Shown here piece by piece: positions 4,708-49,449 of a stretch of 64,000 bases of DNA. Origin of the DNA: Phyllosticta citribraziliensis (Eukaryota); the NCBI RefSeq assembly GCF_038025025.1, contig NW_027117341.1:1798001-1862000 (forward strand), given 5' to 3'. Both the position numbers and the translations under genes were made by a program. Below the pieces are notes generated by a model. It was given only the letters and a program-made list of their open reading frames with translations. It searched no databases and was not told the DNA's origin. Numbering within the stretch: the stretch's first letter is position 1; each line of letters starts with the position of its first letter.

Positions 4708-4880
4708 GCCCTTGAACTTCATCTTGTCGATCCTCCAGCGACCAACCTCCGCATGAAGCGGGTGACCAGAGGGGCCTCCCTCCCTTGAACTTCATCTTGT
4801 CGATCCTCCAGCGACCAATCTCCGCGTGAAGCGGGTGACCAGAGGGGCCTTCCCCCCTTGAACTTCATCTTGTCGATCCC
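4708..4880. repeat. 73-bp tandem repeat, ~2.3 copies
   Basis: CTTGAACTTCATCTTGTCGATCC recurs at 4711, 4784 and 4857 (period 73), and the intervening sequence is near-identical. Confidence 0.95.
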
Positions 4881-5708
4881 CCAGCAACCAGTGACACAGT
4901 AATGGAGAATGTCCTCCTCGACGCACGCACGCACCCCACACATCCCTTTGTTATTTCGGTACGGCGTGCGTGACGCCGCCGAGGCGAGGTTGCGCATCTC
5001 GGTTCCTCGGGGATGTGCTGCTGCTGCTGCTCCCCCTCCTGCGGTGCGTCAAGCTAGGGGTCCGGCCAAGGCGGAGGCCGAGAGTGAGAAGGTGGGTGGA
5101 CAGGCGGTCGTAGTGCCATGTCGGATGGGTGGGTGTGTCGCTGTTTGATGCGAGGAGGATGGACGGCGGATGGAAGCGCTTTTAATATGTGAAAGACTTT
5201 GTGGTCGATGGTGTTGTGCGTGGATTAAGGCGTTGTTTGGGAGGTTGGGGGGAGAGGAGAGGCGTGGATTGTTGGGTGACTTGGGTGAGTTGTTTGTTCA
5301 TAATGTGTTATGGGGTTGGCTTTGCACTGACTGACTTGGACTGGATAGGGGGTTTGGTGGTTGGTGGTCTGCACGCTGGCTGGCTAGCAGACAGGGTTGG
5401 GTGCTTCTTGAGAGGAACTCCTGACGGCTCGCCACAAAAGGGGTATGTGTATCCTGTCTCGAACCCTTTGATCACTATCACTTCACGACCACAAGACGTT
5501 CATGGAAACTAATTTCGGAACAGATTCTATTGCTCTCTATCCTATTCTATGACCACACCGAAAATGCGAAAAGGGGTGAATCTCGCGTACACTGCTATAC
5601 TCCGAACCAGGTACCAATCTAAAACCAAAAGAGCAAAGGAAAAGCAGATCTCACAGCAAGGGCTCACCTCTCTCTCAGAACTCATCCCCCGTCTCATCCC
5701 ATCTCATC

Positions 5709-28355: not shown

Positions 28356-29603
28356 CTAATCCAGCACGCCTCGAATCAAATTCTTTATGCCCTCGCCTCT
28401 GCCCGTCCGGTCCCACGCCTCCGTCGCACGCTCAAACGGCACCTCGGAGCTGATGAGGCGCTTGACGGGCACGCGGCCCTCGTCCATCAGCCGCAGCGCC
28501 GTTTCAAAGTCGCCCGCGCCGTAGCGGAAGCAGCCCTTCATGTTGAGCTCCTTTTCCGACATGACAACCATGGGGAACAACAGGAGGCTCTTGCCCAGGC
28601 CAACCTGGACAAACGTGCCGCCGGGCGCCAGCGCGTGCACGCCCATCTGGACGCAGGGCTCGGCGCCCGTCGCCTCGAGCACCACGTCGACGCCGACGTC
28701 GGCGGGATCCGGGCCCGACGCGTCATCTCTGCTCGCGGCAACGATGGTGCTCGCGTTTTCCTGCGGCGAGGCGTCCTTGCTGGGGACGACGCCGCGGACG
28801 CCGCCGCCAGGCACAAACGACGCGGCGAAGTCGAGCTTGCGCTGCAGCACGTCGACGACGACAACGGAGGTAGCGCCAAAGGCGCGCGCCACGGCCGCAC
28901 AGAAGATGCCAATGGTGCCGGCTCCCATGACGACGACGCGCTGGCCGTGGCGCACGTCGGCCAGGCGGGCAGCGTGGACGGCGACGGCAAGCGGCTCGAC
29001 CAAGACGGCCTCGTCGAGTCCCACGTTCGGCGGGATGCGGTAGCAGAAGTCGGCGGGGATGCGGAAGAATTTGGTGAGGGTGCCGTGGGTGCTCTGGGCG
29101 GGGTCGCCGTTGCGCGGGGCGGCCGCAAAGCGCATGCGGCGACAGAGGTTGTAGCGGCCGCTCTTGCACACGGCGCAGCGGCGGCATGGGAAGCCCGGCT
29201 CAATGGCGACGCGGTCGCCTGGCCGCAGCGCCGTGTCGGCTGGAGACGAAATGGCCTCGATGACGCCCGAGGCCTCGTGGCCCATGACGATGGGGTTGTT
29301 TGGCGTCACCTTGTGCGTCATGCCGCCGTGGTTCCAAAAGTGCACGTCGGAGCCTGGCAGAGGTCAATTAGAGCGGCGGTGTGGGTGAATTGGCAGGCGG
29401 CGTACCGCAGCAGCCGACGTAGGAGATGCGGACGAGGACATCTTGCGGGTCGGTGGGTTGCGGGATGGGGCGATTCTCGTAGCGCGCGTCGCCGGGGGCG
29501 TAGAGGAGGAGGGACGGGTTCTGCGTGGTGGTGAGGTTAGAGCATTGGAGGCAGGGGAGAGGGGCTGGCATACCTTTTCTGACTCGGAGGGCCAGGTAGT
29601 CAT
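28356..29603 (-). CDS. Zn-dependent polyol (xylitol/sorbitol) dehydrogenase, MDR family (3 exons)
   Basis: CGSDVHFW, GHEASG, structural Zn motif CRRCAVC...NLC, GAGTIG, GCFRYG. Confidence 0.92.
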
Positions 29604-30877
29604 GATGAATGATGTAGGGCTGGGTGATCAATTGACGTGATTCCGTGGTTGGCGATTGATATATCAAGCCTGCAGCGAATTGAGAAAAACATCCAAAAAG
29701 CCGTCGAGTATCCAGCCAGATAGGCTCGTTCCATGGCGGATCGCCATCACGCAATCCGAGGCCGGCAGGCAAGTCAGCCGTCAGCCGTCAGCCGTCGACG
29801 GAGCCGTGGCCGTGGCATCGAACAGCAGAAATTGAATTCATAGCCAAGTCGTGGAAGGTCAGGCTTAGCTGCTGACTGGACTGGGAGGCGTTTGTTTGGC
29901 GGTTGTTTGGTTGGGATGTCGTTGGTTCGACGTCGACCTGACGTGAGGAAAGTCGGCCGAGTGCGGGGCAGCAGACAATGCGGGGCGGGGCAAACTACCT
30001 ACCCGACGACGACACAACCACGACACAACGACCTGAACCTCCCCATCCGACGTTCGATCTTGGGACTTTGCAACACACGGTATTCCTTCGCTGCACCTGC
30101 GTCGCACAGAAGCCTCAACCACCATCTGCCGGACAAAACTTCCACTTTGGACGACTCGTGATAGTTGCCACGCTCAACGACTCGATACACAGACCTCACT
30201 GCTGGCATTCAACGCGACGCTAACTCTTGATAGGCCATGTACAAGAATTCCGGTCAACCACACACTTTGGCACTTCACCTATCACCACCCAGAGAACTAT
30301 CAATTCAATATCTTGTCCATGGCCACCCGTCTGCTTGTTCATGACTCTGGCAACTCTGTTTCCTCTTGCGGTGCTCTCAAACAGGAAACAGAGATACCGC
30401 GTACCTTTTCGCACCGCCTCTCGTCCCATTCGGCCTCGTATACCCCGAACTGGACCCCGATCAGACATCAACTCAAACTCGCATGGACCCCGGATAGAGC
30501 TTAGCCTGGCCCCCATGTCTCCGCAACCGGCAGGCGGCCCGCCCAGAAGACGGGGTATTCAAGGCGGGGTAGCTTGGTAGGTCTACCGAGCTTTGTCAAG
30601 TCCATTGACCCTCATTCGCCTGCTCGACCACGGGGTTACTCAGCGTCACCACGAAGCCTAGCTTGCGCCTGTGGCGCCGGAGAATTCCCACCTGTCCAGT
30701 GAGAACGAGTAGCTCTGGCGGCAGGCGAAGCGGTCTTTGAGCACCTGTAAGGAAAGTTGCCCCAGCCTGGAAGAGTATAAGTTCTGCAGCGAGCATCTCT
30801 TCCCACTTTGTAGGCTGTCCTCCCCAAGTTACTTTTTCCAACGGCTTTGACTGCTCTTGCGAGCCCCCAAAGCCAAA

Positions 30878-32839
30878 ATGCTTGCGACAGACTCTATCCA
30901 CACCATCCAACTCCCCAACTTTACCCCAAAGCATCCCAGCATTGCTCCTCCGTCTCCCACCGAAATCACGACCAAATGGTTCGCCGCTTTCCAAGATGTT
31001 CTCGCCAACCCAGCTACCTTGGGGACCCGGCTGCCCACCATTCTCCACACGGATTGCTGGTGGCGGGACAAACTTGGCCTCAGCTGGGACTTTCGCACCT
31101 TGCGCGGCATCGACGCCGTTCGGGACTATCTCCTCAAGTACCAGCCCACTTTGAAGTTGCGTCCCGAAAATCTGGCCAAGCCAGGCAACCGCTTCACACC
31201 CCAGGTTGACGTCCCCATGGAGGGTCTCGAGTGGATCGAGGCCATGTTTGACTGGGAGACGAGCATTGGGCGGGGCAAGGGCATCATCAGGCTTGCGCAG
31301 CGCGAGGACGGCCAGTGGAAAGGGTACATGGTGTACACCACATTGGAAGAGATCAAAGGACACGAGGAAAAGATTGGCCACCGGCGCCCCCATGGAGGCA
31401 GGAATTCGCTCTCAGGCGGAGGCAACTGGGCTGAGCGTCGAGAGCGGGAGAGGGAATTTCTGGACGAGGAGCCCACGGTGATCTGTATTGGAGCCGGCCA
31501 GGCTGGACTGAACTTGGCTGCTAGATTCAGGGCATTGGGAATACCTTGCCTCGTGATTGACCAGAACGAGAGAATCGGTGACAACTGGAGGAAGCGGTAT
31601 AGGGTGAGCACCTACACCCCCTGACAATGGTAACCCTTTACTAACAGACGACAGACGCTTGTGACCCACGACCCAGCACAATTCACGCACATGGCCTATC
31701 TCCCTTTCCCTTCCATCTGGCCCACCTTCACGCCCAAAGACAAGCTGGCCGACTGGTTCGAGTCGTACGCGTCACTCCTCGAGCTCAACGTGTGGATGCG
31801 CACCACCATCACCGAGTCGACCTACGACGACGCCACGCACAAGTGGACGGTGACTGTCATCCGGCGCGATGCTGACGGCAACACGACGACGCGGATCATG
31901 CACCCAAAGCACATCATAATGTGCACCGGGCACTCGGGCAAGCCCAAAGTGCCCAACTTCCCCAACCAGGCGGCCTTCCAGGGCAAGCTCTACCACGGCA
32001 GCGAGCACAAAGACGCCTCCCTGATCCCGCCATCCGAGCTCGCCAACAAGCGCGTCGTCGTCGTCGGCACAGGCAACTCGGGCCACGACATTGCGCAAAA
32101 CTACCACGAAGCGGGCGCCGCATCCGTCACGATGCTGCAGCGCCGCGGCACGTACGTCATCAGCGCGCTCGACGGGAAAGGCATCTTCATGATGCACGAA
32201 GGCCTGTACGACGAGAACGGCCCGCCGACCGCCGACGCCGACGTCTACGGCGAGTCGCTGCCCAACGCCGTGCACTTTGCGCTCAATGTCGGCTTCACCA
32301 AGCGCGTGGCGGCAGCCGAAGCCCCCGTGCTGGCCGGACTCGACAAGGCGGGCTTCGCGCGCGACGCCGGGCCCGACGGCTCCGGCCTCATGCGCAAGTA
32401 CCTCACGCGCGGCGGCGGCTACTACATCGACGTCGGGGCGTCCCAACTCATCGCGGACGGCAAAATCAACGTCGTGCGCAGCGAAGGCGGCATCAGCGGC
32501 TTCACGCGCGACGGGCTCGTCCTCGCCGACGGCGCCAACACCCATCTCGCCGCCGACGTCGTCGTGCTGGCGACGGGCTACGACAACATGAAGACCAGCG
32601 TGGCCAAGGCGCTGGGCGAGCAGCACGCGGCGCGCTGCGCCGACGTGTGGGACCTGGACGCCGAGGGCGAGATTCGCACCATGTGGCGCCCCAGCGGCCA
32701 CCCGGGGCTGTGGTTCATGGGCGGCAATTTGGCCATGTGTCGCATTCATAGTAAGACGTTGGCGCTGCAGATTTTGGCGTGCGAGGTCGGCTTGAATCGC
32801 CAGGATGAGCCGTGTCGGAGTATGGTGCAGGCGGCGTAG
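30878..32839 (+). CDS. Flavin-containing monooxygenase (class B, long N-terminal domain); intron 31604-31654
   Basis: FAD motif GAGQAG, GDNWRKRY, FxGxxxHxxxH, NADPH motif GTGNSGHD, VVLATGY. Confidence 0.92.
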
Positions 32840-33183: not shown

Positions 33184-35096
33184 CTAGGTCCTACTCCATT
33201 CCATCTCATCCTCCGTCTCTTTCCTTCGTTTCTTCTTCTGCTGTCTGCCCGGCTCATCTGTCGATCCAGCCTGCTTTTCCGATGCTGTCCTCGAGGATTC
33301 GAGTTCTGCTCGAGCTCTTTTTGTCGCGGCAATATTCCCCCAGTGACAATCGAGCTCCCTTAGAGTACAGCGACGACAAACAGGTGTCTTGTAGTCACAG
33401 TTGGTCCTCGCTGCCCAACAAGCATTGCACTTTTTTCCTTTGTATTTGCGGGTACCAGCTTCGGCTACTGATTGTTCGGAAACTGCCACGTTCTGGCTGT
33501 CTTGAGGCAAGCTACTGGCACCAGCTGTTCCAGACGTAGGGACTTTGTCTTTCGGTCCGGAGGCCAGTCGGATGCTGGACCTCCGTGATGACTGCTCCGG
33601 GCTGCAAGTTCCTTGATGTGTATGAGGATCATGGCCAATGGCTCTGGCGTCTCTCTCTAGGAAGAGACGGGCAGGTACAATGACTCGACGCTTCGAATAG
33701 TCTTCTCCAAAGGCATCGCCGTATGCCACCAACCCTGTTCCAACGACTATATGGACAACACGGTCATTCAACGATTCGTCCGCCCTATCAGCAAGATAGT
33801 GCAATTGGTCGATCCAGAACTCATCGTTGCGGACACTGAATCTCTTCCCGACCTGCTGCGCCGGAGAAGTCCAAACAAAGGAGGCCTGCTGTGTGAGCAG
33901 TCGGAAGTGGAGATTCCCAGCTCTTTTGAAGATCTGGTCCAGATCTTCCTTCATCTTCTGGGTTTCCTCACTCTCCCCAGCTTTAAACATCCACTGAGGA
34001 ATGGATGTCAAGAACCTGTCTTCCAAAAAGCTATACACGCGCTGTAGCACTTCCTCGCCGACTGATTTCGGTACGAGCAGCTCGCCGGCATGAGAATCCC
34101 TGATCAAAGGACTCGCAGAATCTGGGAATTCGTGTCTGATGATGTCTTTTCTCCACGAATTCGCCTTTCGTTCATCCACTAGTTCCTGAGTCAGCCACGG
34201 ACCCCCTGGCTCACACGACGTTACTTACCATCACGCATCCCATAAAACGTTTTATTAAGACCTCCCGCGAACGAGTACGCGTGTTCCGCGTTGAGATTTT
34301 GGAAATGGAAAAAAGGATCCCCCCAGACGGTCACACGAATGACTTCGGACAAAAAAGCAGCCAATAGCAGAAACGGATGCTCCAGTCCCTCAAATTGCGA
34401 GTGTTCTTTGTATACCGAGCATTCACTGACTCGTCGAAGGAAACTGGACTCCTCGGGCAGTCTTTCGGTGTCAAGCACGTCAGAGAAAGACTTGACGCTA
34501 CAGTCTTTCGCCCACGACCTTATAGTCAGTTGCAAGTCCTGGACCGCGTGTTGAATGGACTGGTCTTCTTCCGGTATCCATTTGGAACTTTCGCACTTCA
34601 GGAGCTTACCCCGGATGTTCTTCAGCTCCAACTCACGCCTGGCAAGTTCGCACCGCTTGCTCTCCAGACTCTTCGCCAGCTTCTCTGCTTCGTCCTTCCA
34701 TTTTGCGACTCTTTCAACTTGGTTCTGTTCAAATGTCCTGCACATACTGATAAATCCTCTCAGTTCCATGGTTTGGGTGTCATACAGCCGTTGCACGGCG
34801 CGCATCTCCGTGGACGGTCGTCCGTCTTGATCCACGTTTGCTCCGAACGATCTCTCGCATGGTCCTGTCTTTGTCGATTCCGATGTGACAATCCTGAGTT
34901 GCGGATTTAGTTCCATCATGGCTTTTTCCAGATCAGCTTCAGTGCCTGCCAACTGCAGATCGGACTTACGCGGGCAGAGGTCGACAGATGCATGTGAGAA
35001 ACCACCTTCATTACAAGCAGTCACTGACCATTTGTAGCAAACACGACCATTACTCGCCTCCCGTCTTGGCCATGGCGCGAAGCTCGCCCAACGCAA
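33184..35096 (-). CDS. Hsp70-partner 1: coiled coil, conserved helical/beta domain and C-terminal Zn2Cys6; intron 34179-34228; 5' end uncertain
   Basis: Paralog of 41373-43574 (shared W.PE, IR.WAK, PFL.LAA.LSE.IR, KAN.W.K.I.RHEFP, RAGN.HF.L.TQQA.F.W, GTGL.A.GDA.G..YSK.RV..P). First secure ATGs are at 34919/34916. Confidence 0.8.
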
Positions 35097-35755: not shown

Positions 35756-37711
35756 ATGATGGATACTGACCACAAGATTGTCCTCGGTCTCGATTTTGGG
35801 ACCACCTACACTGGTGAGTTGCCTCGGCTCTTGCTATGTTCGGCCCCCTGAAAAGTCTCCAGGCGTCGCGTACGGCAGCACTGCTGGCGACGTCCAAGAC
35901 CTCGAGATCATCACCAGCTGGCCGGATTCGTCGGGCGCCTCATACAAAACACCCACCAGGATTGCGTATCACGACGAGAATATCGACGAAGACGATGGAG
36001 AGGATAAGTGGGGGTTCCAAGTCAACTCACGACTGAACTCGTACACATGGTTCAAGCTCCTTTTGAACACCGAACTCGACCCAAACAAATACGACGACAA
36101 GCCGCACGAGTCCAAGTCGCAAGGCATTCTGCGGCTTCCGGAGGACCACTCTGCGCAAGACGTCTGCAGGGACTACTTGAAGCTCGTCTGGGAGTTCATC
36201 AAAGACGTGCTCGAGCAACGGTTCACGGACGACTCGCTGAACCTGCCGATTGAGGTGTGGATGACCGTTCCGGCGATATGGAACGACGCGGCCAAGGATC
36301 AGACGAGAGCTGCAGCGAAGGCGGCGGGATTTGCGTCGGGGCCAAAAGACTGCATCAAATTGATCACCGAGCCAGAAGCGGCTGCGGTGGCCATTCTGCA
36401 CCCTACGCTGCGTGGAGCCGCAGTTGATCCCATCCGCAAAGGAGAGGCCTTCGTCGTCTGTGACTGTGGCGGTGGCACTGTGGACCTTACCACGTACAGA
36501 GTCGAGTCGTGCAGCCCAAATTTCAAGTTCAAGGAGATTTGCGGGGGGGAAGGAGCGAGGTGCGTGTCCACGTTTGTGGACCGCAACTTTGATGCCTGGA
36601 TGGCGAAAAGGTTCAAGGGAAACTACACCAAATTGGGCGCAAAGAGTAGGGGACCTGGCTCCAAGATGATGGAGTCGTTCGAGAAGGCGAAATTGAAGTT
36701 TGGGCCCAAGTTGATGGACCAGGAGACGGAAAGAGTGAAGGTTGAAAATGTGGACATGAACGTTCAGGGGTCGGAATTTTACGACCGCGAGGACCACACC
36801 GTGCTCTTTCCGTGGTGAGTATCCATCCCCCTGACATTTCCCACAGCGCGCGGTTCCAGACTAAGTTCGTCGTCCATCCAGGGCGGTTATGAAAACATTC
36901 TTCGACCCCGTCATCGACCGCGTTCTAGAGCTTTTGGAAAGCCAAGTCCGAAAGTCGAAGAGACGCGGGTGTGATGTGGAACGAGTCATGCTGGCCGGTG
37001 GATTTGGCGACAGTCCTTACCTCAAGCACCGTCTCAAGATATGGTGTCGGTCCCAAAAGCGTGAAATCAAGCTTCTTTGTCCGCCCAAATGCCAGGCCGC
37101 CATCATGGCAGGGGCCGTCATTCGTGGCCTCATCGGATTAAAGCCAATCATCAGAATTGCACGCTGCCACTATGGGTTTTCCTGGAGTGAACCGTTCAGA
37201 GAAGGAATCGACCTTGATAAAGACGCGTGGTATGATCAAGAGACGGGGGCGAAGATGGCATACCATAGGATGAAGTGGATCGTGAAAAAGGTACGTCGTC
37301 TTGCGCGACTGTAGGGCGAGAGTGCTGCAGACCATGAGAGCTGACTCTTCCTGCCAGGGTCAGCAATTGAAAAACAACTTCTCCATGAAGCAAGAGATCG
37401 AACGGCAGATCCTGCCAGGGGAAGTGCGCAGCAAAGATCGCCTCCAATTTTTCTCGTGCAGCGCCGAGGCCCGTCCAGATTTCGAATATTCGGAGAACGT
37501 CAAGCTGGTGGGACAGGTCAAGATTTCCTTCACTGAAGAGGACTGGGAAAATGCTCGTCCCGTCATCAGCGAGAAGAAGGAGAGGATCTGGTACCTCGGA
37601 TATGATGTCTTGATCAACGTAAACGCTGACGAAGGCATTCTCGTCGTCAACGTTTGCAACGAAAAGCGACAAATGGGTAACGCTGAGATAGAGTTCATCC
37701 AAGAAGAGTAG
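35756..37711 (+). CDS. Atypical Hsp70 (HSPA12-like actin-fold ATPase) 1, ~590 aa; introns 35814-35862, 36815-36881, 37291-37357
   Basis: GLDFGTTYTG, TVPAIW, ITEPEAAA, VCDCGGGTVD, LAGGFGDSPYL. No canonical DnaK substrate-binding domain or EEVD seen. Confidence 0.92.
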
Positions 37712-39034: not shown

Positions 39035-40963
39035 TCAGTCTTCCGCCTGAAACTGGAGTGTAGCGGTGCCCATCTGCCGCCCGGTAGTTTCGTGTTTCAC
39101 AACGACCGTCAAAACCCCCAAGTCCGAGCTCATGTTGATTTCGATGTTGTAAAACACGAGCGTCACATACGCTTCCAATCTTTTGCTGTATTTGCTCCGA
39201 GCCGTGGCCAATTCATCCTTTGTGAAGTGGATTTCGATGCATGCGGCAAGCTTCGTGCTGGGTGCATACTCAAACTGGGGAGGTTTGTCGTCCGAGCACG
39301 TGAAAATTTCAACTTCGTCGTAATCAAGGACCTCTCCTTGCTTGATCTCTTTCTGGATCATTTGGGTTATAGTCTTTCCTGGTGGCACTGCTTCACCCTG
39401 TAAAATCATGTTAGTACTCACAACAAACTGATCAGTTCGTCAACGTTGAATCACCTTTGTGATCAACCATTCCATTCTGTCATACGCCATCTTTTTGGTA
39501 CCAAAAGCGCTCATCCAAGCAGAAGTCTGCTTGTCTATCCCCTCTCTGAAACGCTTACTGACACTGCAACCATAGTGACATCTGGCAACTCGCAGAGTTG
39601 GTTGTAGTTCCGGCGTCAGCCCACGTATGACTGCTCCCCTCATCACCGCAGATTGGCAATTTGGAGGACACGACAGCTTCAGGGGCGGTTCTTTTGCCTC
39701 ACAGAACTCTCTCATGCGAGCGTTCAAGAACTCATTTTCTCCGAAGCCGCCGACGAGAATAATATGACAAACCCGGTGCTTGTTCATTCTCGCGCGATCG
39801 ATCTGAGTCTGAACGAGCTTCAGGATCTTCTTGATGATGGGCCTGAAGAACTGTTCCATGACATCTCTACAGTCTTTCAGTGGATTGTATTTGGTAAGTA
39901 GCCAACTCATGACTCACTTGGGAATCTTTACAGTGCGGTCCTCGTGGTCGTAGAACTGAGTGCTGGGATGGTCCATGTCTACGTGGCAGACATCGTACAC
40001 CTCTTTGTCGTCGTCATATTGAGAGCCGAAATCATGTTTCGCCTTCTCAAAGGATTCCATCATCCTCGTGTGAGAGGCTTGTCGGTTTGTGAGAATCTGC
40101 GTGTATTTTCTCCCAAATTCCCGTGTCATCCATTGGTCAAAGTTCCGGTCGATGAATGAAGCACCGAACTGACCACCGTCTCCCTGGCAAGCTTCGTCAA
40201 ACTCTGGCGGATTGAAAGACTTGATGATGTACGTGACCACATCAACCGTGCCCCCGCCACAGTCACAGACCATGAATGTTTCGCCAACCTCGACCGGGTC
40301 AACAGTCGTTTGGTTTGCTGAAGGATGAATAACGGTCAAGGCAGCGGCCTCGGGCTCGGTAATGAGTCTGAGAGTGTCGCCCGGTCGCGCACCGAATCCT
40401 GACGCCAAAGCAGCCTCTCTTGTCTCGTATTTGGCTGCGTCGCTCCACACAGCGGGTACGGTCATTACAACGTCGATGGGAACAGATCGAACCTTTTGTG
40501 CGCCAAACTTCCTGGATAGATAGTCCTCGACGAACACCCAGACGTTTGTCAAGAAATCCTGGCATGTTTGCTTGGCGGACCGACCTTCGGGGAGCTGCAG
40601 TATCCCGCTGAACTCAGTGAACAGTGATACATCACAGCCACGAGTGACCTCTTTATCCCCATCGAGCCGAAGTTTGAACCATGTGTATGACACGTGTTGA
40701 TGGTCGACTCTGAAGCCCCATCTCGTGACACTTAGTTCCGGATTTTCGTCTCTGTATGCGATCCTCGAAGGAACTTTACACGTTCCGGAGCCTTTGGGCC
40801 AGCTGGAGATGATCTCAATGTCTTGGACAGTTCCGACAGTGGAGCCGTACGCAACGCCTGTTATCACCGCAATCATTACTTGATCTGAGAGTCCATCATC
40901 AAGCCTACCAGTGCATGTTGTTCCAAAATCCAGGCCGAGAATAATGCGGGGCTGGTTGGCCAT
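39035..40963 (-). CDS. Atypical Hsp70 (HSPA12-like) 2, ~589 aa; introns 40858-40908, 39867-39917, 39398-39454
   Basis: GLDFGTTCTG, TVPAVW, ITEPEAAA, VCDCGGGTVD, LVGGFGENEFL. Same three intron positions as copy 1. Confidence 0.92.
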
Positions 40964-41372: not shown

Positions 41373-43574
41373 ATGGCGCGACGAGGTCGACCATCAAAAG
41401 GATCATCTGCGCAGAAGTCGGAGCCACAGCCTACGCCTGCCTTTGAAAGCAACCAATCAAGGAGAAGGGCTCGATCGTTGACGCAAAATCCACTGTCTCC
41501 AACTGCGACTAGATTGGAACCGGCCGGTGGATTCTTTCGACCGAATCGCCCTATAACCAAGCCCTCCACAGCCAATGGCTCGCACCAGAAGTTAGGAAAG
41601 AGGAAATTTGAAGCCGAAGAGGATGAACAGGCCAAGATGCTTCAAATTTTCCAAAGTATCAAAGAAAGACGAGCCGAGGAATCAAAGGACCTGCGCAGAC
41701 TTTTCCAATGCGGGGTTCAATCAATGAAGAGCTCCCAACGAGAAGTCGAAAAGCTGGAGTCTTCTCTCCAAACGCTAGAACACTCTTTCCAAACTCTGGA
41801 ACATTCTCTACAAAAGAAGGACAGAGTCATCAAAGAACAAGAGCAGCTCCACCAAGAGATTAGTGCAAACGCTCTCAAATGCGAAAACTCAAGATGGAAC
41901 CCGGAGCAAGAGAAGGATATCAAGTTCGCCGTGGAGGGCCTGCAAAAGTCAATCAGAGACTGGGCCAAACAATACGCCGTCCAATCTTTAATTCCGGTAT
42001 TTTATCATGGAGGAACGACCTTGGAACTCCTTGTTCAGCAGATAAGACAGATCGCTACTTTTGAATGCGCGGAATCTGCGCACGACCTGGACAGACCATT
42101 CCTCTTCCTGGCTGCCGTGCTTTCTGAGTACATTCGCCGTACCATTCTAGACAATCACTACTTCCATTTCGAAGCCCCCAATTCTTATGGGATGTACAAC
42201 ATGTTCTCCTTTGCAAGCAAATCGAACCAGATCTACAAAGATCTGGTGAAAGGTAAGTGATCTGACTAGGTCAAAGCGCACCGTTTGCTCACTTATGTAG
42301 TGGACCATCAAAAGGCAAACTGGATGAAGAAAACAATTTTCCGCCACGAGTTCCCCGCGACCCGTAGTACAAGCACCAAACGAGCCTCACTAGACGAACC
42401 GCTATGCCCCGAGTCCATCGATCAAGATGTCTTGATCTACAAGTACAAATCGATTCAGGACAACTTCCTCAATGGGCCTGCTGGGTTACTCGTTGACGAG
42501 CTTGGGCAGTCCAAAACCGCGGAGATGAACGAAGAGTTGAAGAAGATCTTGTGGAGGGCTGGCAACATCCACTTTTGCCTCCAAACGCAACAGGCGGCGT
42601 TCACGTGGATTGCTCCGCGACTGCTACTCGGCAAGACTTATCTGGAGCGAAACAGACAAATGGTGCCGGACACATCCCAGGGAGGCGACTCCTCAGAAGG
42701 CAACGAAGTCCGGATCGTTATCGGTACTGGCCTCCTCGCTTGGGGTGATGCTGCTGGAGATACGTATAGTAAGTGGCGTGTGGTAGCTCCGTCGCCAGTC
42801 CTCCTCAGAGTCGAGGGTGGAAGCAACGAAAGCCTTTCCCTGGCTGACGAAGAAACCCTTCAGGGAGATGAAGAGATCGAGGATTCTCTTCAGGGGGGTG
42901 AAAAGCTCGAGGATTCCCTTCAGGAGGATGAAGAAGTCGGGGACTCCCTCCATGGGGACGAAAAGGTCGACGAAACCCTTCAGGAAGATGAAGAAATCAA
43001 AAGTTCTCTTCAGGAGGGTGAAAAGGTTGACGATTCCCTTCAGGAGGATGGAGAGGTCGATAATCGCTGCAGGGGGATGAAGAGATCGGAGAATTCCTTC
43101 GGGAGGATGAAGAGGTCGAGGATTCACTTCAGGGGGGCGAAGAGATCGATGATTCCCCTCAGGAAGATGGAGAGATTGAGGATTGCATTCAGGAGGGTGA
43201 AAAGGTCAAGGATTTCCTTCAGGGGGATGAAGAGATCGGGGACTCCCTTCAGGAGGATGAAGAGGTTGAGGATTCACTTCAGGGGGATGAAGAGATTGAT
43301 GATCTACTTCAAGGGGGTGAAGAAATTGATAATTCCCCTCAGGAAGAAGGAAAGATTGAGGTTTGCATTCAGGGGGATGAGGAGGTTAAGGATTTACTTC
43401 AAGTGGTTGAAGAGATCGATGATTCCCCTCAGGAAGATGGAGAGATTGAGGATTTGGACACAAAATATGAACAAGAGCGGTGCACCTGCTGCTGACGGCA
43501 TTCAATACGACCACTCATTTTGTTTACGAGGGCTCATCTGCTGCGCAGTAGCCATGAGCAAGCAGTTCTCATAG
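41373..43574 (+). CDS. Hsp70-partner 2: basic N-terminus, coiled coil, conserved domain and repeat tail; intron 42253-42300; apparent frameshift at ~43064
   Basis: aacATGg start MARRGRP; paralog of partner 1 with an intron in the same codon and phase. Ends at 43574 as assembled, or at 43495 if the repeat frame is restored. Confidence 0.8.
42858..43456 (+). repeat. Coding 30-bp minisatellite, ~20 imperfect copies (consensus CTTCAGGRGGATGAAGAGRTYGAGGATTCC = LQ[GE]DEE[IV]EDS)
   Basis: 10-codon period seen directly; one unit at ~43064 is 1 nt short. Confidence 0.95.
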
Positions 43575-43738: not shown

Positions 43739-46700
43739 TCACGCCTCCTCGTCCACCTCCTCTTCCGCCTCCTCTTGCTCCTGTTCTTGCTCTTCCTCAC
43801 CCGCGTCGCCCATGGGCTCGGTGACTTCGACTTCGACGTGGCTTTCTGCTTCTGGTGCCTCGCTCTCCGCCGGCCCAGGGCCCGCAGCGAGATCGGCATC
43901 GGCGTCGGCGCCGTCTAAAGCCTGCACTGACACCTGTCCCGCCTCCGCTTCTACTTCCTTCTGCGCTGCCTTTGCTTCTTCCTGCTCTTGCACTTGCTCT
44001 TGCGCTGCGTCCCGTTTCTCGCCACCAACAGCGGCGCTTGCAACAGCGCCGGGCAAAAGACTGGGACTGGCACTTCCGCTCCCCACACTCCCAACGCCGA
44101 CGCCACCGCCACGAAACTCGACCGTCCAGCCCGCTCTCTTCTTCCCTCCTGCTGCTGCGGCTGCTGCGCCACCGCTGCTGCCGCTGCCGCTCCCAGCGCC
44201 CGTGTCCCGTCTGGGCACCGCGTCTAGGAGAATTGTCTCTCTGCGCTGCGGCTGCGGCGGCGGTGGCGGTGGCAGCATCGGCGCCTGCTGTTGTTCCCCT
44301 GAAAGCATCATCGCAGACGAGAGGCTCGTGTTGGCGCGCGTGTGGCCGCCCGCTGCTCCGCCAGCCGTGCCAGGCCGAGTGGTAGCAGTGCCAGGACGCT
44401 GTATCGCGGCGGCGGCCCCGGCGGCCGTCGAAGTAGTAGGCGTGCCCGTGCTGCCGGGGTTGTTGTTGGTCGCGGTGCCCGGCCGGATAGCCGCGGTGCT
44501 GGACCCGCTGTCGCGATCGCCGCCACCGCACACGACGCCCACCGTGACGCTGCCGTAGTCGGGCACGACGCGGACGGCCGCGGCGGCGCTGAGGGCGTCG
44601 ACTTCGTGCGTCAGCTCCACGTCCGGCGGCGGCGGCGGAGCGGCAGAGCCGGCGGGTTTGCCGCCCTTTTGCGCCGGCGAGGGAGGAGGCGCAGGACGCA
44701 CGCCGACGCTGGGACACCACACGGTGGCGCCGGTGCGCAGCGGGACGAGCGTGACGTCCCACTCGCGCACCTCGCCCTCGCGGGCCTCGAAGAAGGCGCG
44801 CTTGGGCCCCGCGACCAGCCACGTGTTGGGGTCGGCGTCGACGTCGAGGATGAAGGACAGCGGCGCCGCGGCCTGCGGGATGTTGGCTGCGGCGACGAGA
44901 GATGACGGCGCCGCCCATTTGCGCGTGTGCTTGACGCGGATGGTGGCGGGGATGGGCACGCCCAGGGCCAGTATGGGCGGCGTGAGCGCTGGCGTAGGCG
45001 TTGCGAGAAAGGCCTGTGTCAGGTCTGTTGTTTTGGTCGTCGTGTTTGTTTTGGAGCGGTGGTGCGAGGGTGGCTTTGCTGCCGCCGAGGGAGACGAAGA
45101 AGGCCGCGGAGGTGGATGCAGCACCAGCTGGGTCGTGGTGAGAATGTGCAAGTGAGGCACGGCGACGGTGATGGTGATTCGGCGAGTGAGAGGCGACGCG
45201 AGCGAGAGAGCCCGTGATGGTGGCGGCGTCACGTCAATGGTTGGATTGGACTCGTGCCAGTTCGAGAGGTAAGTTGAGAGCTCTGGGCGCATGGCCGGGG
45301 GGAGCAGCTCCAAAGTCTGCGGCCAGACGAGGTGAGAGGCAAACTCGCCGCAACGCAGCTGATTGCGGAAGCTTGCGTGGTACCAGTCGTCGGCCGTCAA
45401 AGTGGCCTTGATATGCTCCCAGAAGCGCGGGAGGAGCAGACGTCGCAGCGTGGAAAAGGGGCTATCAGCCAGCGCGGTACAAAAATTTGCCTCCAACTTG
45501 TCGTATATGTGGTCGTCGAGACAGCGGTAGTCGATTGTGAGGGAGAGATTCGAGTCCTCAGGGTTGGTGAGGTTGGCGCCCTCTTTTCTGAAAATGCGAT
45601 AAACAAAGGCAGGCGGCTGGCCTGGGCGTACTGGATTACGGTCTCCATAGAGACGCGCAGGGTCGACATCAAAGGTGGCCGTGCCTTGAAGCTGAATGTC
45701 GAGGACATCCAGAGGTACGTGACTTGACGTAGTGACTTTGAAGGTGGACAGGAGCATCTGCTCCATAAACTGATCGTGAACATTAACATCCAGAGGAAGT
45801 TCAATGTTGATGGTGCAGTTAGACCGGAACTCGTGCGTTCCGTGCTCTGTGGAGTACAAAATGTCCAGCTTGATGTGCAACTCGGACAGCGTCACTTCCA
45901 ACTCGTAGGGAATGCGTATCTTGACGGTGCACTGGGCCTCCATCTCTGAAAGAACGAGCACGCCAGGACTCGGACGGTCTGCAATGGTGGCTTCTCCTTC
46001 AATCACCTGAGCATTTCCTGTCCGTAGTCTCAATCCCGCAGAAGCAGCCTTAAGATGCACCTCCAACCTTGTAGGTCTGTTTGCAAAGGGCCGTACTGTG
46101 AGCTCTATCGACTTCAACTTGTCGATATGGACAGAGCGAGATACTGATAGTTTTGCGTCCAATGCCTCGGAGCGCGGGTATGATAGCGTTCTAAACTTTC
46201 GCGGAATCTTTGAAATAGACGAAGAGGATCCGGGCATGGTGATTCCCAGCGGTTCCAGAGTATGTTCCTTTTTGATCGTCTCATGCGTAAAGTGGATTCT
46301 CTTGACCTCAAGAACTACCCTGTCTATTGCATAGAGACCAAGAGTATTGACCTGTTCCGGTCAGTTAAAAGTCCACAATCATGCCAAAACTCTTACATTC
46401 GTGTGGAGCCAGACGTTAGCGGTGCCTTGACCGATTTCGAGTTTCTCACTCGTCTCGAGCCAAACGTCGCGGCTTTCTCCCGGCTCCATGGGCGCAAGGC
46501 GTACTTTGGCCTTGTCGACCACCACGTCATCTTCCAAGAGATGGCGGAAAGTCAGTTTCAACTTGAAGCCGTCTCGGTCATCATAGTGATAGATGTACGG
46601 CTCGACCGCAATGTCTGCAAAGTACCGCTCCATTGGTGCCTGCACGTCGTAGGGCATGTCGGCCGAGAAGTCAGTCAGCTGCTTTAGAATCCCTGTTGTG

Positions 46701-49449
46701 TCGAGTTGGTCATCGTCGAGCCATGGCATGCCTCCCGCTGCGCCGGCCTTGTGGAGTTTGAGAGACCTGCAAGATTTCCTGTTGCCCACTGACTTGGCGA
46801 GCAGATCGAGCAGGACTCGAGCATACTCGTCCCTTCGATTGAGCTTTTGAAGACACTGAGCATACATCTTGAGCATCGTGACTTCGACCAGATTCCATCG
46901 GTTCTGGGCATAGAGAGGGGCCATGTGGCTGAAGAATTGCGCCGCGGCTGAGAAGTCGCCGTCCTCGCTATTCCGGGTCAGCAAAGTTGCCTCGAATCCA
47001 TGGGAAGACGTACAATTTGATTGCAGCGAGATCCCCCATGATGCTCTCTGCAGACTTGGATCGGTTCGCGGCAAAGTAATGCTTCACTACCAAATCGCTC
47101 AAGTTCTGCTCATGTTAGTATGGTAACCAGTCTCTTCTCGTCGTGCATACCTCGAATAATTTCCTGAAGTCCTCAAATGTAGATGTTGCCTCGCGAAGCG
47201 ACGGCTCGCAAACACCAGCCATCTTTTCTCCCTTGGGAGCATCCCCGTTGACCTCCTCGCCATTGGTCGTGGCTTTGGGCTCGTCATCGAGTGACACATC
47301 GGTGAATGTTTGGTCTTGATGCTTAGCAGCCACAGACGCCCATCCCAAAAGCCAATTCAGCTTTTTGCCTATCCGTTCCAGGATTCTCCTCTGAATCAGA
47401 TAGAGCTCTGCACGATGTGCTGCGAGTTCCAGTTGACCTGACTTTTGAGTGCGACCCGAGCCCAGGTCCGTCTTTGCACTGTTGGTGCTGTTGGACTTGC
47501 CGTGCTCGAATACCACCTGGCCCTGTCGGATTTGAGGTAGTTCCTGGACCGACGTGCGGCGATCCAACAAAGAGCTCGAACGCTTGGGATGCAAGGTCCT
47601 GTTTTGATCAGGGACAGCGACTTTGAGGTCGTTTTTGGGCGCTAGACGGTTTGAGGAAGAGCCGGGCCTTGATGCAGATTTGGACCCGCCTGAAGATTCG
47701 GGCAGCGCAGAGGTAATGGTATCGTTGAGCACTTGCTGTGCCACGGCATAGCTCCACGACGAGATGAAGTTGTCTGTGAGATTGGCCGGGTATTCCTCCT
47801 CTTCCGTTTCTAGACTGTGGCCCAAATCCCGCCGCATCATGTGCGCAGCTATATTCAAGAAGCCCATGGCTCGTCGACAAAGCTCAGCGAGATGTGTCAG
47901 GTCTTCGTTTTGCTCTTCTTCGTCGGCTTTGGTGCCCAGGAAAAGATCGTCGGCCGATTTGGCACCCTCGATTGCCGTTGCAGGGACCTGAATGCTGTGC
48001 CGGGAGGTTGGCCTCGAATTAGGTCTCGAGCTTGGCCTCGAGCCATTCCAAAACTCGGATCGCGACGCTGATGCATTTCCAAGCCGCAGGAGCAGAGCCA
48101 TCTGGCGCGAAAAGATGTAGCTCTGGAAATCAAATACAGAAATGTTGTTTGACAGAATCATGCCCCTGTAGTCCTTTCGTGACGAGCTGATTGGCTTGCT
48201 GTTGAATGGATCGAACTGCGGTGCCTTTTTAGAGTTGATGAGTTGTTGTTTTAGATCCTCGGTATGCTCCAGAAAAGACTGCGCAGAAGTAGATCCCTCT
48301 GCAGCCTGCTCTCGGATAATGGCGTCCAGCCCAACGGACAGCTCGTCATAACCAACCAAAGCATCCTCGACAAGTCCAACGCTCTCAAAGCCCCGCGCCA
48401 AGCCTTCTTTGAGCATGAAAAAGGTATTAAAGTTCCAACCAGGTAAATGTCTCTGGGCGTCCTTTTCTTTAATATCTTCTTCATACTGGCTGACACGCAG
48501 ATCAAACGAGATTAAGATGAGGGCCTTGAACTTGGTAATGCTGTCACTCCAGGAATTGATAATCTCCTGAGAGCTCTCCTTGTACGGATTTGGATCACCC
48601 CCGATGCCAGGAGGAAGAAGATGAGGAGGGATATCCTTCATCTCCAATCGAATCTGGGCCACGCGGTCCGGGGCCGTCTTGGTGGCAACGTTGAAATCAT
48701 GGCGAATCTTTTCAAAGAGGGTGGTCGAAGCACGCCAGCGGGAGGCGCTGGGCTTGTCGAGAGTCCCCGAAGTAGCGCTGGTAGAGCCGCTGAAGCGCGG
48801 CTGGGCGGATGCTGCGGTGTCTGGAAGCACGACGTGCAGAATCAAATACTCGTAGGCGTCGTGGTTCTCCTGGTTGCTCTTCTTCTCGCCTTCGGTGCTG
48901 GGGGCGTTCTCTCGGATCCATTCGCGGATTTGCTTGCGGGCAGTCACCTTGTAGGTGTCGTTGTCGTCGCACCTGAGCAGATAGACTTTGAGATAGGGCG
49001 TCTGGCTCAAGCCGGGAATCTGATGACGTCGTTTGCGGCCATCAGAGGAACCCGGGCGCGCCGAGGCCGAGGAGGCGGCGCGCATGCGCGAGCCATCGTG
49101 ACCGGAAGAAGTAGGCCGGGATTTGAGAAAATCGTCCGTAGGGTCCCGTCCAGGCACCAGCTCGACGTGGAGCGAGTCAATGGAGCGCAGAGGGCGCGAA
49201 GGAGATTTCCAATGGAGATTGCGCAGCGGCAGGCGGGACCTCAGATGCGGCTCTACAATAGGGAAAAGGCCAGCGGGATCGTAATATTCGACTAGAGGCA
49301 GCGGTTAGCATGGGTCAATGATGCATAGCTAGCAAACACATGGGTGGGCGCGTTGTGGGCGTACCCGTGACCTTTGAGCTAGAAGAGGCGGCCATGATGC
49401 GTCGTTCGGCATGGGGCGCTTGGTCGGCATGCCCATCGGCGTCCGTCAT
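43739..49449 (-). CDS. TRS130: TRAPPII subunit Trs130/TRAPPC10 (multi-exon; start 49449 or 49395)
   Basis: SKVTVEYYDPAGLF, LPLRNLHWKSPSRPLRSI, RRHQIPGL.QTPYLK, LPGWNFNTFFMLKEGLARGFE; C-terminal WLVAGPKRAFF. Confidence 0.93.

Follow-up and report, generated by a model that had tools for sequence, protein, structure and literature searches.

A stretch of 64,000 nucleotides from the fungus Phyllosticta citribraziliensis (contig NW_027117341.1, here C4:1798001-1862000; the window) contains two gene pairs, each consisting of an HSPA12-type Hsp70 and a divergently transcribed coiled-coil protein, which we call the partner. From structure predictions, the partner most likely has a remotely GrpE-like architecture that includes a large helical insert and, by analogy with GrpE, it is likely a private regulator of the neighbouring Hsp70. 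The pair is real and conserved, and we found no published description of it in the literature searched, which left most subscription papers out of reach. The gene order is partner 1 (-), Hsp70-1 (+), Hsp70-2 (-) and partner 2 (+), forming two head-to-head pairs with ATG-to-ATG distances of 836 bp for the first and 409 bp for the second. GT-AG introns mark the window as fungal, as do its nearest homologues bearing names, which come from Phyllosticta. The components of the two pairs are as follows:

33184..34919, - strand: partner 1 (database form P0045), with predicted coiled coil, helix A, insert, helix B and beta head, followed by a Zn2Cys6-like cluster and a basic KKKRRK stretch
35756..37711, + strand: Hsp70-like gene 1, HSPA12 type, 590 aa (P0166)
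39035..40963, - strand: Hsp70-like gene 2, HSPA12 type, 589 aa (database form P0052), three introns
41373..42252, + strand: partner 2, exon 1, with a disordered basic N-terminus, coiled coil, helix A (W..E.D / R.WAK) and the first half of the insert
42253..42300, + strand: partner 2, intron, 48 nt, GT-AG, phase 1
42301..42830, + strand: partner 2, core of exon 2, with the remaining insert, helix B and the predicted GrpE-like beta head
42831..43574, + strand: partner 2, tail, holding about 20 copies of a 30-nt acidic repeat

The linkage between partner and Hsp70, which had been noticed in the window from the letters alone, is real and extends to the whole genome. A genome search with the last exon of the partner gave six matches, and all six copies are divergent from, and head-to-head with, an HSPA12-type Hsp70; none (0/6) occurs without one, although the six pairs are not independent events. 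Two of them lie in the window and the other four in tandem at C4:2085400-2109400 (L008-L010), around 220 kb away, in a cluster that adjoins a leucyl-tRNA-synthetase-like gene (named by eye). The equivalent search with the Hsp70 gave eight matches, and the remaining two, a housekeeping HSPA12-like gene and BiP, have no partner match nearby.

Outside this genome, partner and Hsp70 bear consecutive accession numbers, which show neighbourhood without orientation, in two of the four non-Phyllosticta partners checked (Lasiodiplodia KAF9629606/605 and Rhizodiscina KAF2102745/746), the accession gap being 4 in Neofusicoccum and 90 in Diplodia corticola. This lookup was made for named homologues other than those of Aplosporella, Vezdaea, Monosporascus and Zasmidium. 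Likewise, several pairs with consecutive accession numbers occur in other Phyllosticta species. A metagenome search with a single Hsp70 query retained none of 52 candidates, so that linkage beyond this genome is read from accession numbers only.

To compare the history of both genes, we used the phylogenies of 12 pairs. The partner and Hsp70 trees have in common four two-member groups and one five-member group, all well supported, indicating that the whole pair is the unit of duplication. The rank correlation between partner and Hsp70 identities was 0.66 for the 12 pairs (0 of 5000 permutations), a value inflated by orthologues, and 0.36 for the six pairs of this genome (75 of 720 permutations). 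Trees and correlations thus show duplication, not co-evolution.

Partners 1 and 2 are paralogues with a common intron. Their C-terminal exons show 38% identity over 173 aa (E 7e-37) and their first exons 29% over 256 aa (E 1e-22); the intron of partner 1 (34179-34228) has the same position and phase as that of partner 2, and partners 3 and 5 have exon junctions at the matching place. Both of the C-terminal motifs originally quoted for the two partners are present, at 42705-42806 (+) in partner 2 and 33658-33759 (-) in partner 1. Conversely, the end first proposed for partner 2, at 42820, is wrong: the gene starts at ATG 41373 and continues into the acidic repeat array at 42856-43454. The main exons of Hsp70-1 and Hsp70-2 show 48% identity.

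The partner family contains at least 44 proteins at E<=0.001 in a representative search, those with names being ascomycete, and in the ESM Atlas the partner domain groups with unnamed ascomycete clusters at 0.95-0.96. Within the family, the beta head and helix A are the most conserved parts (0.50 and 0.48), ahead of the insert and the coiled coil (0.36 and 0.33). With exon 2 of the partner as a query against longer proteins, none of 690 candidates passed, and the partner profile gave no match in five bacterial genomes (0/5), in a search run without a positive control. For this family, Pfam scans of the window exons and 23 homologues returned only coiled-coil noise. Two source records label homologues as 'kinesin heavy chain', a name that we rejected because Pfam sees no motor domain.

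The sequence-only reading had seen in both partners a coiled coil, a helical bundle and a beta-rich end, and this order was reproduced by AlphaFold2 in partner 1 (helix 2-60 with pLDDT above 88, helices 69-275, strands 280-354) and in exon 2 of partner 2 (helices 2-94, strands 99-168). A long N-terminal helical stalk, as in GrpE, is predicted in partner 1 by helix 2-60 and in partner 2 by a heptad bias, with 57% hydrophobic residues at a/d positions versus 29% overall (best of seven registers). Of six fold comparisons, four placed GrpE first, with two programs and on two models, and it is the top structural neighbour of the predicted partner head.

The proposal of a remote GrpE-like fold is partly supported: the beta end is a candidate GrpE-like domain by prediction, the likeness is incomplete in the helices, and family profiles do not see it. 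The short-loop helix pair of GrpE, which builds a four-helix bundle across the dimer, is absent from the monomer model of partner 1, in which a helical insert of around 155 residues comes between helix A (69-90) and helix B (250-275). The GrpE profile, PF01025, had no match at E<=1 on the window exons and was not among the families listed for the 23 partner homologues, while the control, Mge1, scored 128 bits. HHalign comparison of the partner with a narrow and mostly alphaproteobacterial set of GrpE proteins (33 of 80 kept) gave 0.4-0.6%, not convincingly above shuffles, although the head motifs are in register in the alignment; a profile hidden Markov model of the head gave no signal against the same set, no better than shuffles. 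A sequence search of the PDB with the partner-family profile returned coiled-coil matches only, a BAG1 row being at chance level (E 0.32). By these profile searches the partner falls outside the Pfam GrpE family, and the predicted models make it quite probable that its fold was derived from GrpE.

As predicted for the partner, GrpE, Mge1 and GrpEL1 have a long N-terminal stalk, short helices and a C-terminal beta domain in that order, and grpE-dnaK operons also link the gene to that of an Hsp70. Unlike GrpE, the partner has the extra insert, longer head loops and variable C-terminal tails, and its neighbour is HSPA12-type, whereas GrpE works with DnaK-type or mitochondrial Hsp70s. In contrast to Mge1 and GrpEL1, it has no obvious organelle presequence. 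We rejected the idea that it is the fungal Mge1, since the true Mge1 sits on another contig, C1 (L014, E 7e-36).

The paired Hsp70s match PF00012 above the cut-off in the window, with DnaK as the best PDB match (E 2e-7). The phosphate-2, catalytic glutamate, lysine and adenosine motifs occur in all six, and the phosphate-1 motif in the four full-length forms (4/4). These proteins are around 590 aa long and lack a helical lid, and their ATPase domain begins almost at the N-terminus, so that no targeting peptide is evident by eye. Their assignment to HSPA12 is based on motifs, length, 40% identity to the housekeeping copy and source names ('heat shock 70 kDa protein 12A/B'). From their motifs and N-termini they are likely active nucleotide binders in the cytosol or nucleus, and the pair as a whole probably works there because inspection by eye revealed no obvious N-terminal targeting peptide in either protein. 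HSPA12A/B share with them the Hsp70 ATPase domain, the intact motifs and the lidless length of around 590 aa, and have no described cofactor; HspA12 function is given as unknown in the portion of PMC13580251 available to us. The paired copies form a fast-diverging set apart from the housekeeping HSPA12-like gene (L012:4135-6758, -), which has a proline/glutamine-rich N-terminus. The lobe IIB hairpin spans 55-57 residues in five paired Hsp70s, whereas that of the housekeeping copy has 52 and end points that differ slightly, and we discarded its length as a distinguishing feature since the difference is too small.

By analogy with GrpE, the partner probably pairs physically with the neighbouring Hsp70; it may well bind the ATPase domain of its own neighbour and control the nucleotide state as GrpE does, and the prospect that it has true nucleotide exchange activity is close to even, though slightly below. 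In the mechanism that we propose, a short two-way promoter would drive both genes, the partner would dimerise through its stalk, and one beta head would wedge into the IB/IIB cleft of the cognate Hsp70, leading to ADP release. This step is modelled on GrpE: the accessible sections of PMC4753570, PMC11685456 and PMC12987570 describe a dimer whose beta-wing enters the nucleotide cleft and turns lobe IIB, assisted by short helices of both protomers. Pairs would diverge in such a way that partner and Hsp70 remain matched. The helical insert and variable tails could add specificity and an output, with the tails (Zn2Cys6, acidic repeats) putting the complex on its target. Hsp110, Fes1/HspBP1 and BAG do the job proposed here for the partner, ADP release from non-organellar Hsp70s, but their folds are unrelated to it and they show no gene pairing with one Hsp70.

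The main rival to a private regulator is a two-component guard or self/non-self switch, comparable to toxin-antidote or incompatibility pairs, which we consider possible but clearly less probable. In such a switch the partner would act as effector, its coiled coil oligomerising and its variable tails giving the output, with the Hsp70 as its nucleotide-gated keeper; the GrpE-like head would be a docking surface and exchange incidental, so that the two readings are compatible. Strict one-to-one, head-to-head pairs in two clusters fit this scheme, as does the faster divergence of partners, their identities and those of the Hsp70s being 63/82, 50/69, 44/56 and 50/56% between orthologous pairs. Likewise, in comparison with a related run, the core of partner 2 has 14 non-synonymous and 5 synonymous codon differences versus 4 and 6 in Hsp70-2 (counts from 40 of approximately 59 difference rows), although relaxed constraint alone could yield these figures. 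Also in favour of the switch, the copy number of an Hsp70 orthogroup varies in Phyllosticta, with 4-5 genes in pathogens and 6-7 in endophytes according to the part of PMC9073689 that was available; judging from names, this orthogroup is likely the paired Hsp70 family. Additionally, some bacterial conflict neighbourhoods, those of GAP1-N2, contain Hsp70 and GrpE genes in the sections of PMC7159879 at hand, in a system that differs from the fungal pair. Against the switch, Pfam scans found no death, HET, NLR or toxin domain in the partners, and for several pairs orthologues are found in synteny among Phyllosticta species.

It is rather unlikely that the partner serves the Hsp70 only as a dedicated client or adaptor, without exchange, and resembles GrpE superficially, through a small beta domain placed after a long helix, because GrpE came first in most of the fold comparisons with both programs and both models, and because the neighbour is an Hsp70, the sole known ligand of the GrpE fold. 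Divergent gene pairs are frequent in compact fungal genomes and the six copies are non-independent, which would suit genes that merely share a promoter and were duplicated together, encoding proteins that do not interact, but this is improbable given that no partner copy lacks an Hsp70 and that the genes are still adjacent where partner identity has dropped to about 22-38%, as well as in two further genera, including a distant lineage.

If the partner is indeed a GrpE-fold regulator paired with an HSPA12-type Hsp70, it would be an exception to the organelle-only distribution of GrpE and the first candidate cofactor for HSPA12; the available portions of two reviews, PMC13580251 and PMC4753570, state that eukaryotes retained GrpE in organelles only, the former adding that no cytosolic GrpE was retained. 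Furthermore, six diverged cognate pairs in one genome offer a 6x6 specificity test.

Kinship of the partner with Mieap or the plant GIL1/IRKI proteins had also been suggested. In the GIL1/IRKI C-terminal domain and Mieap/SPATA18, a coiled coil and a helical domain are accompanied by an end that resembles GrpE. By language-model features, the nearest named ESM Atlas clusters to the partner are indeed GIL1_IRKI_C (PF24994; 0.81) and MIEAP (PF16026; 0.77-0.79), scores that, being under 0.9, count as leads only, but neither profile had a Pfam match in the window exons or the homologues. A search of this genome for PF16026 and PF24994, run without a positive control, was blank; no MIEAP or GIL1/IRKI protein was among the PDB search matches for the partner, and we found no published link of either family to HSPA12 in the literature searched. 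Speculatively, and with a low likelihood for the scheme as a whole, filamentous ascomycetes might hold matched two-gene switches in which an extramitochondrial, GrpE-derived protein would serve its own HSPA12-type ATPase in two roles, as exchange factor and, through an acidic tail or a DNA-binding Zn2Cys6, as output arm. These pairs would multiply and diverge lock-and-key in self/non-self or stress sensing, and Mieap and GIL1/IRKI would be the missing HSPA12 cofactors in animals and plants.

The C-terminal tails are the variable part of the partners. In the window, the tail of partner 2 shows a frame shift near 43060, an acidic part with 42% D/E being followed by a basic part with 31% K/R. The related contigs of runs X1 and X3 stay in the acidic frame, with a different number of repeats, indicating that either strain variation or an assembly slip lies behind the frame change in the window. 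Mostly non-synonymous differences cluster at 42365-42541 (+), in the insert of partner 2 and the helices before the head; many of them are common to X1 and X3 against the window, and the cluster is possibly a recent fast change in the lineage of the window. In partner 1, the Zn2Cys6-like cluster (33346-33429, -) fell below the cut-off (E 0.0045), and the same domain passes in the orthologue P0175, with 21.9 bits versus a cut-off of 21. This cluster and the basic stretch of partner 1 are kept in P0175 and left out of gene model P0045.

Beside the two pairs lie ordinary-looking genes, named by eye: a zinc-dependent sugar-alcohol-dehydrogenase-like gene (28356-29345, -) and a flavin monooxygenase-like gene (30857-32839, +). 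Past partner 2 there is a gene resembling, also by eye, the large TRAPP II subunit Trs130 (43739-49304, -), with a long low-complexity C-terminal part. Finally, positions 4709-4890 of the window hold a tandem repeat with 2.5 copies of a 73-bp unit and 94% matches.
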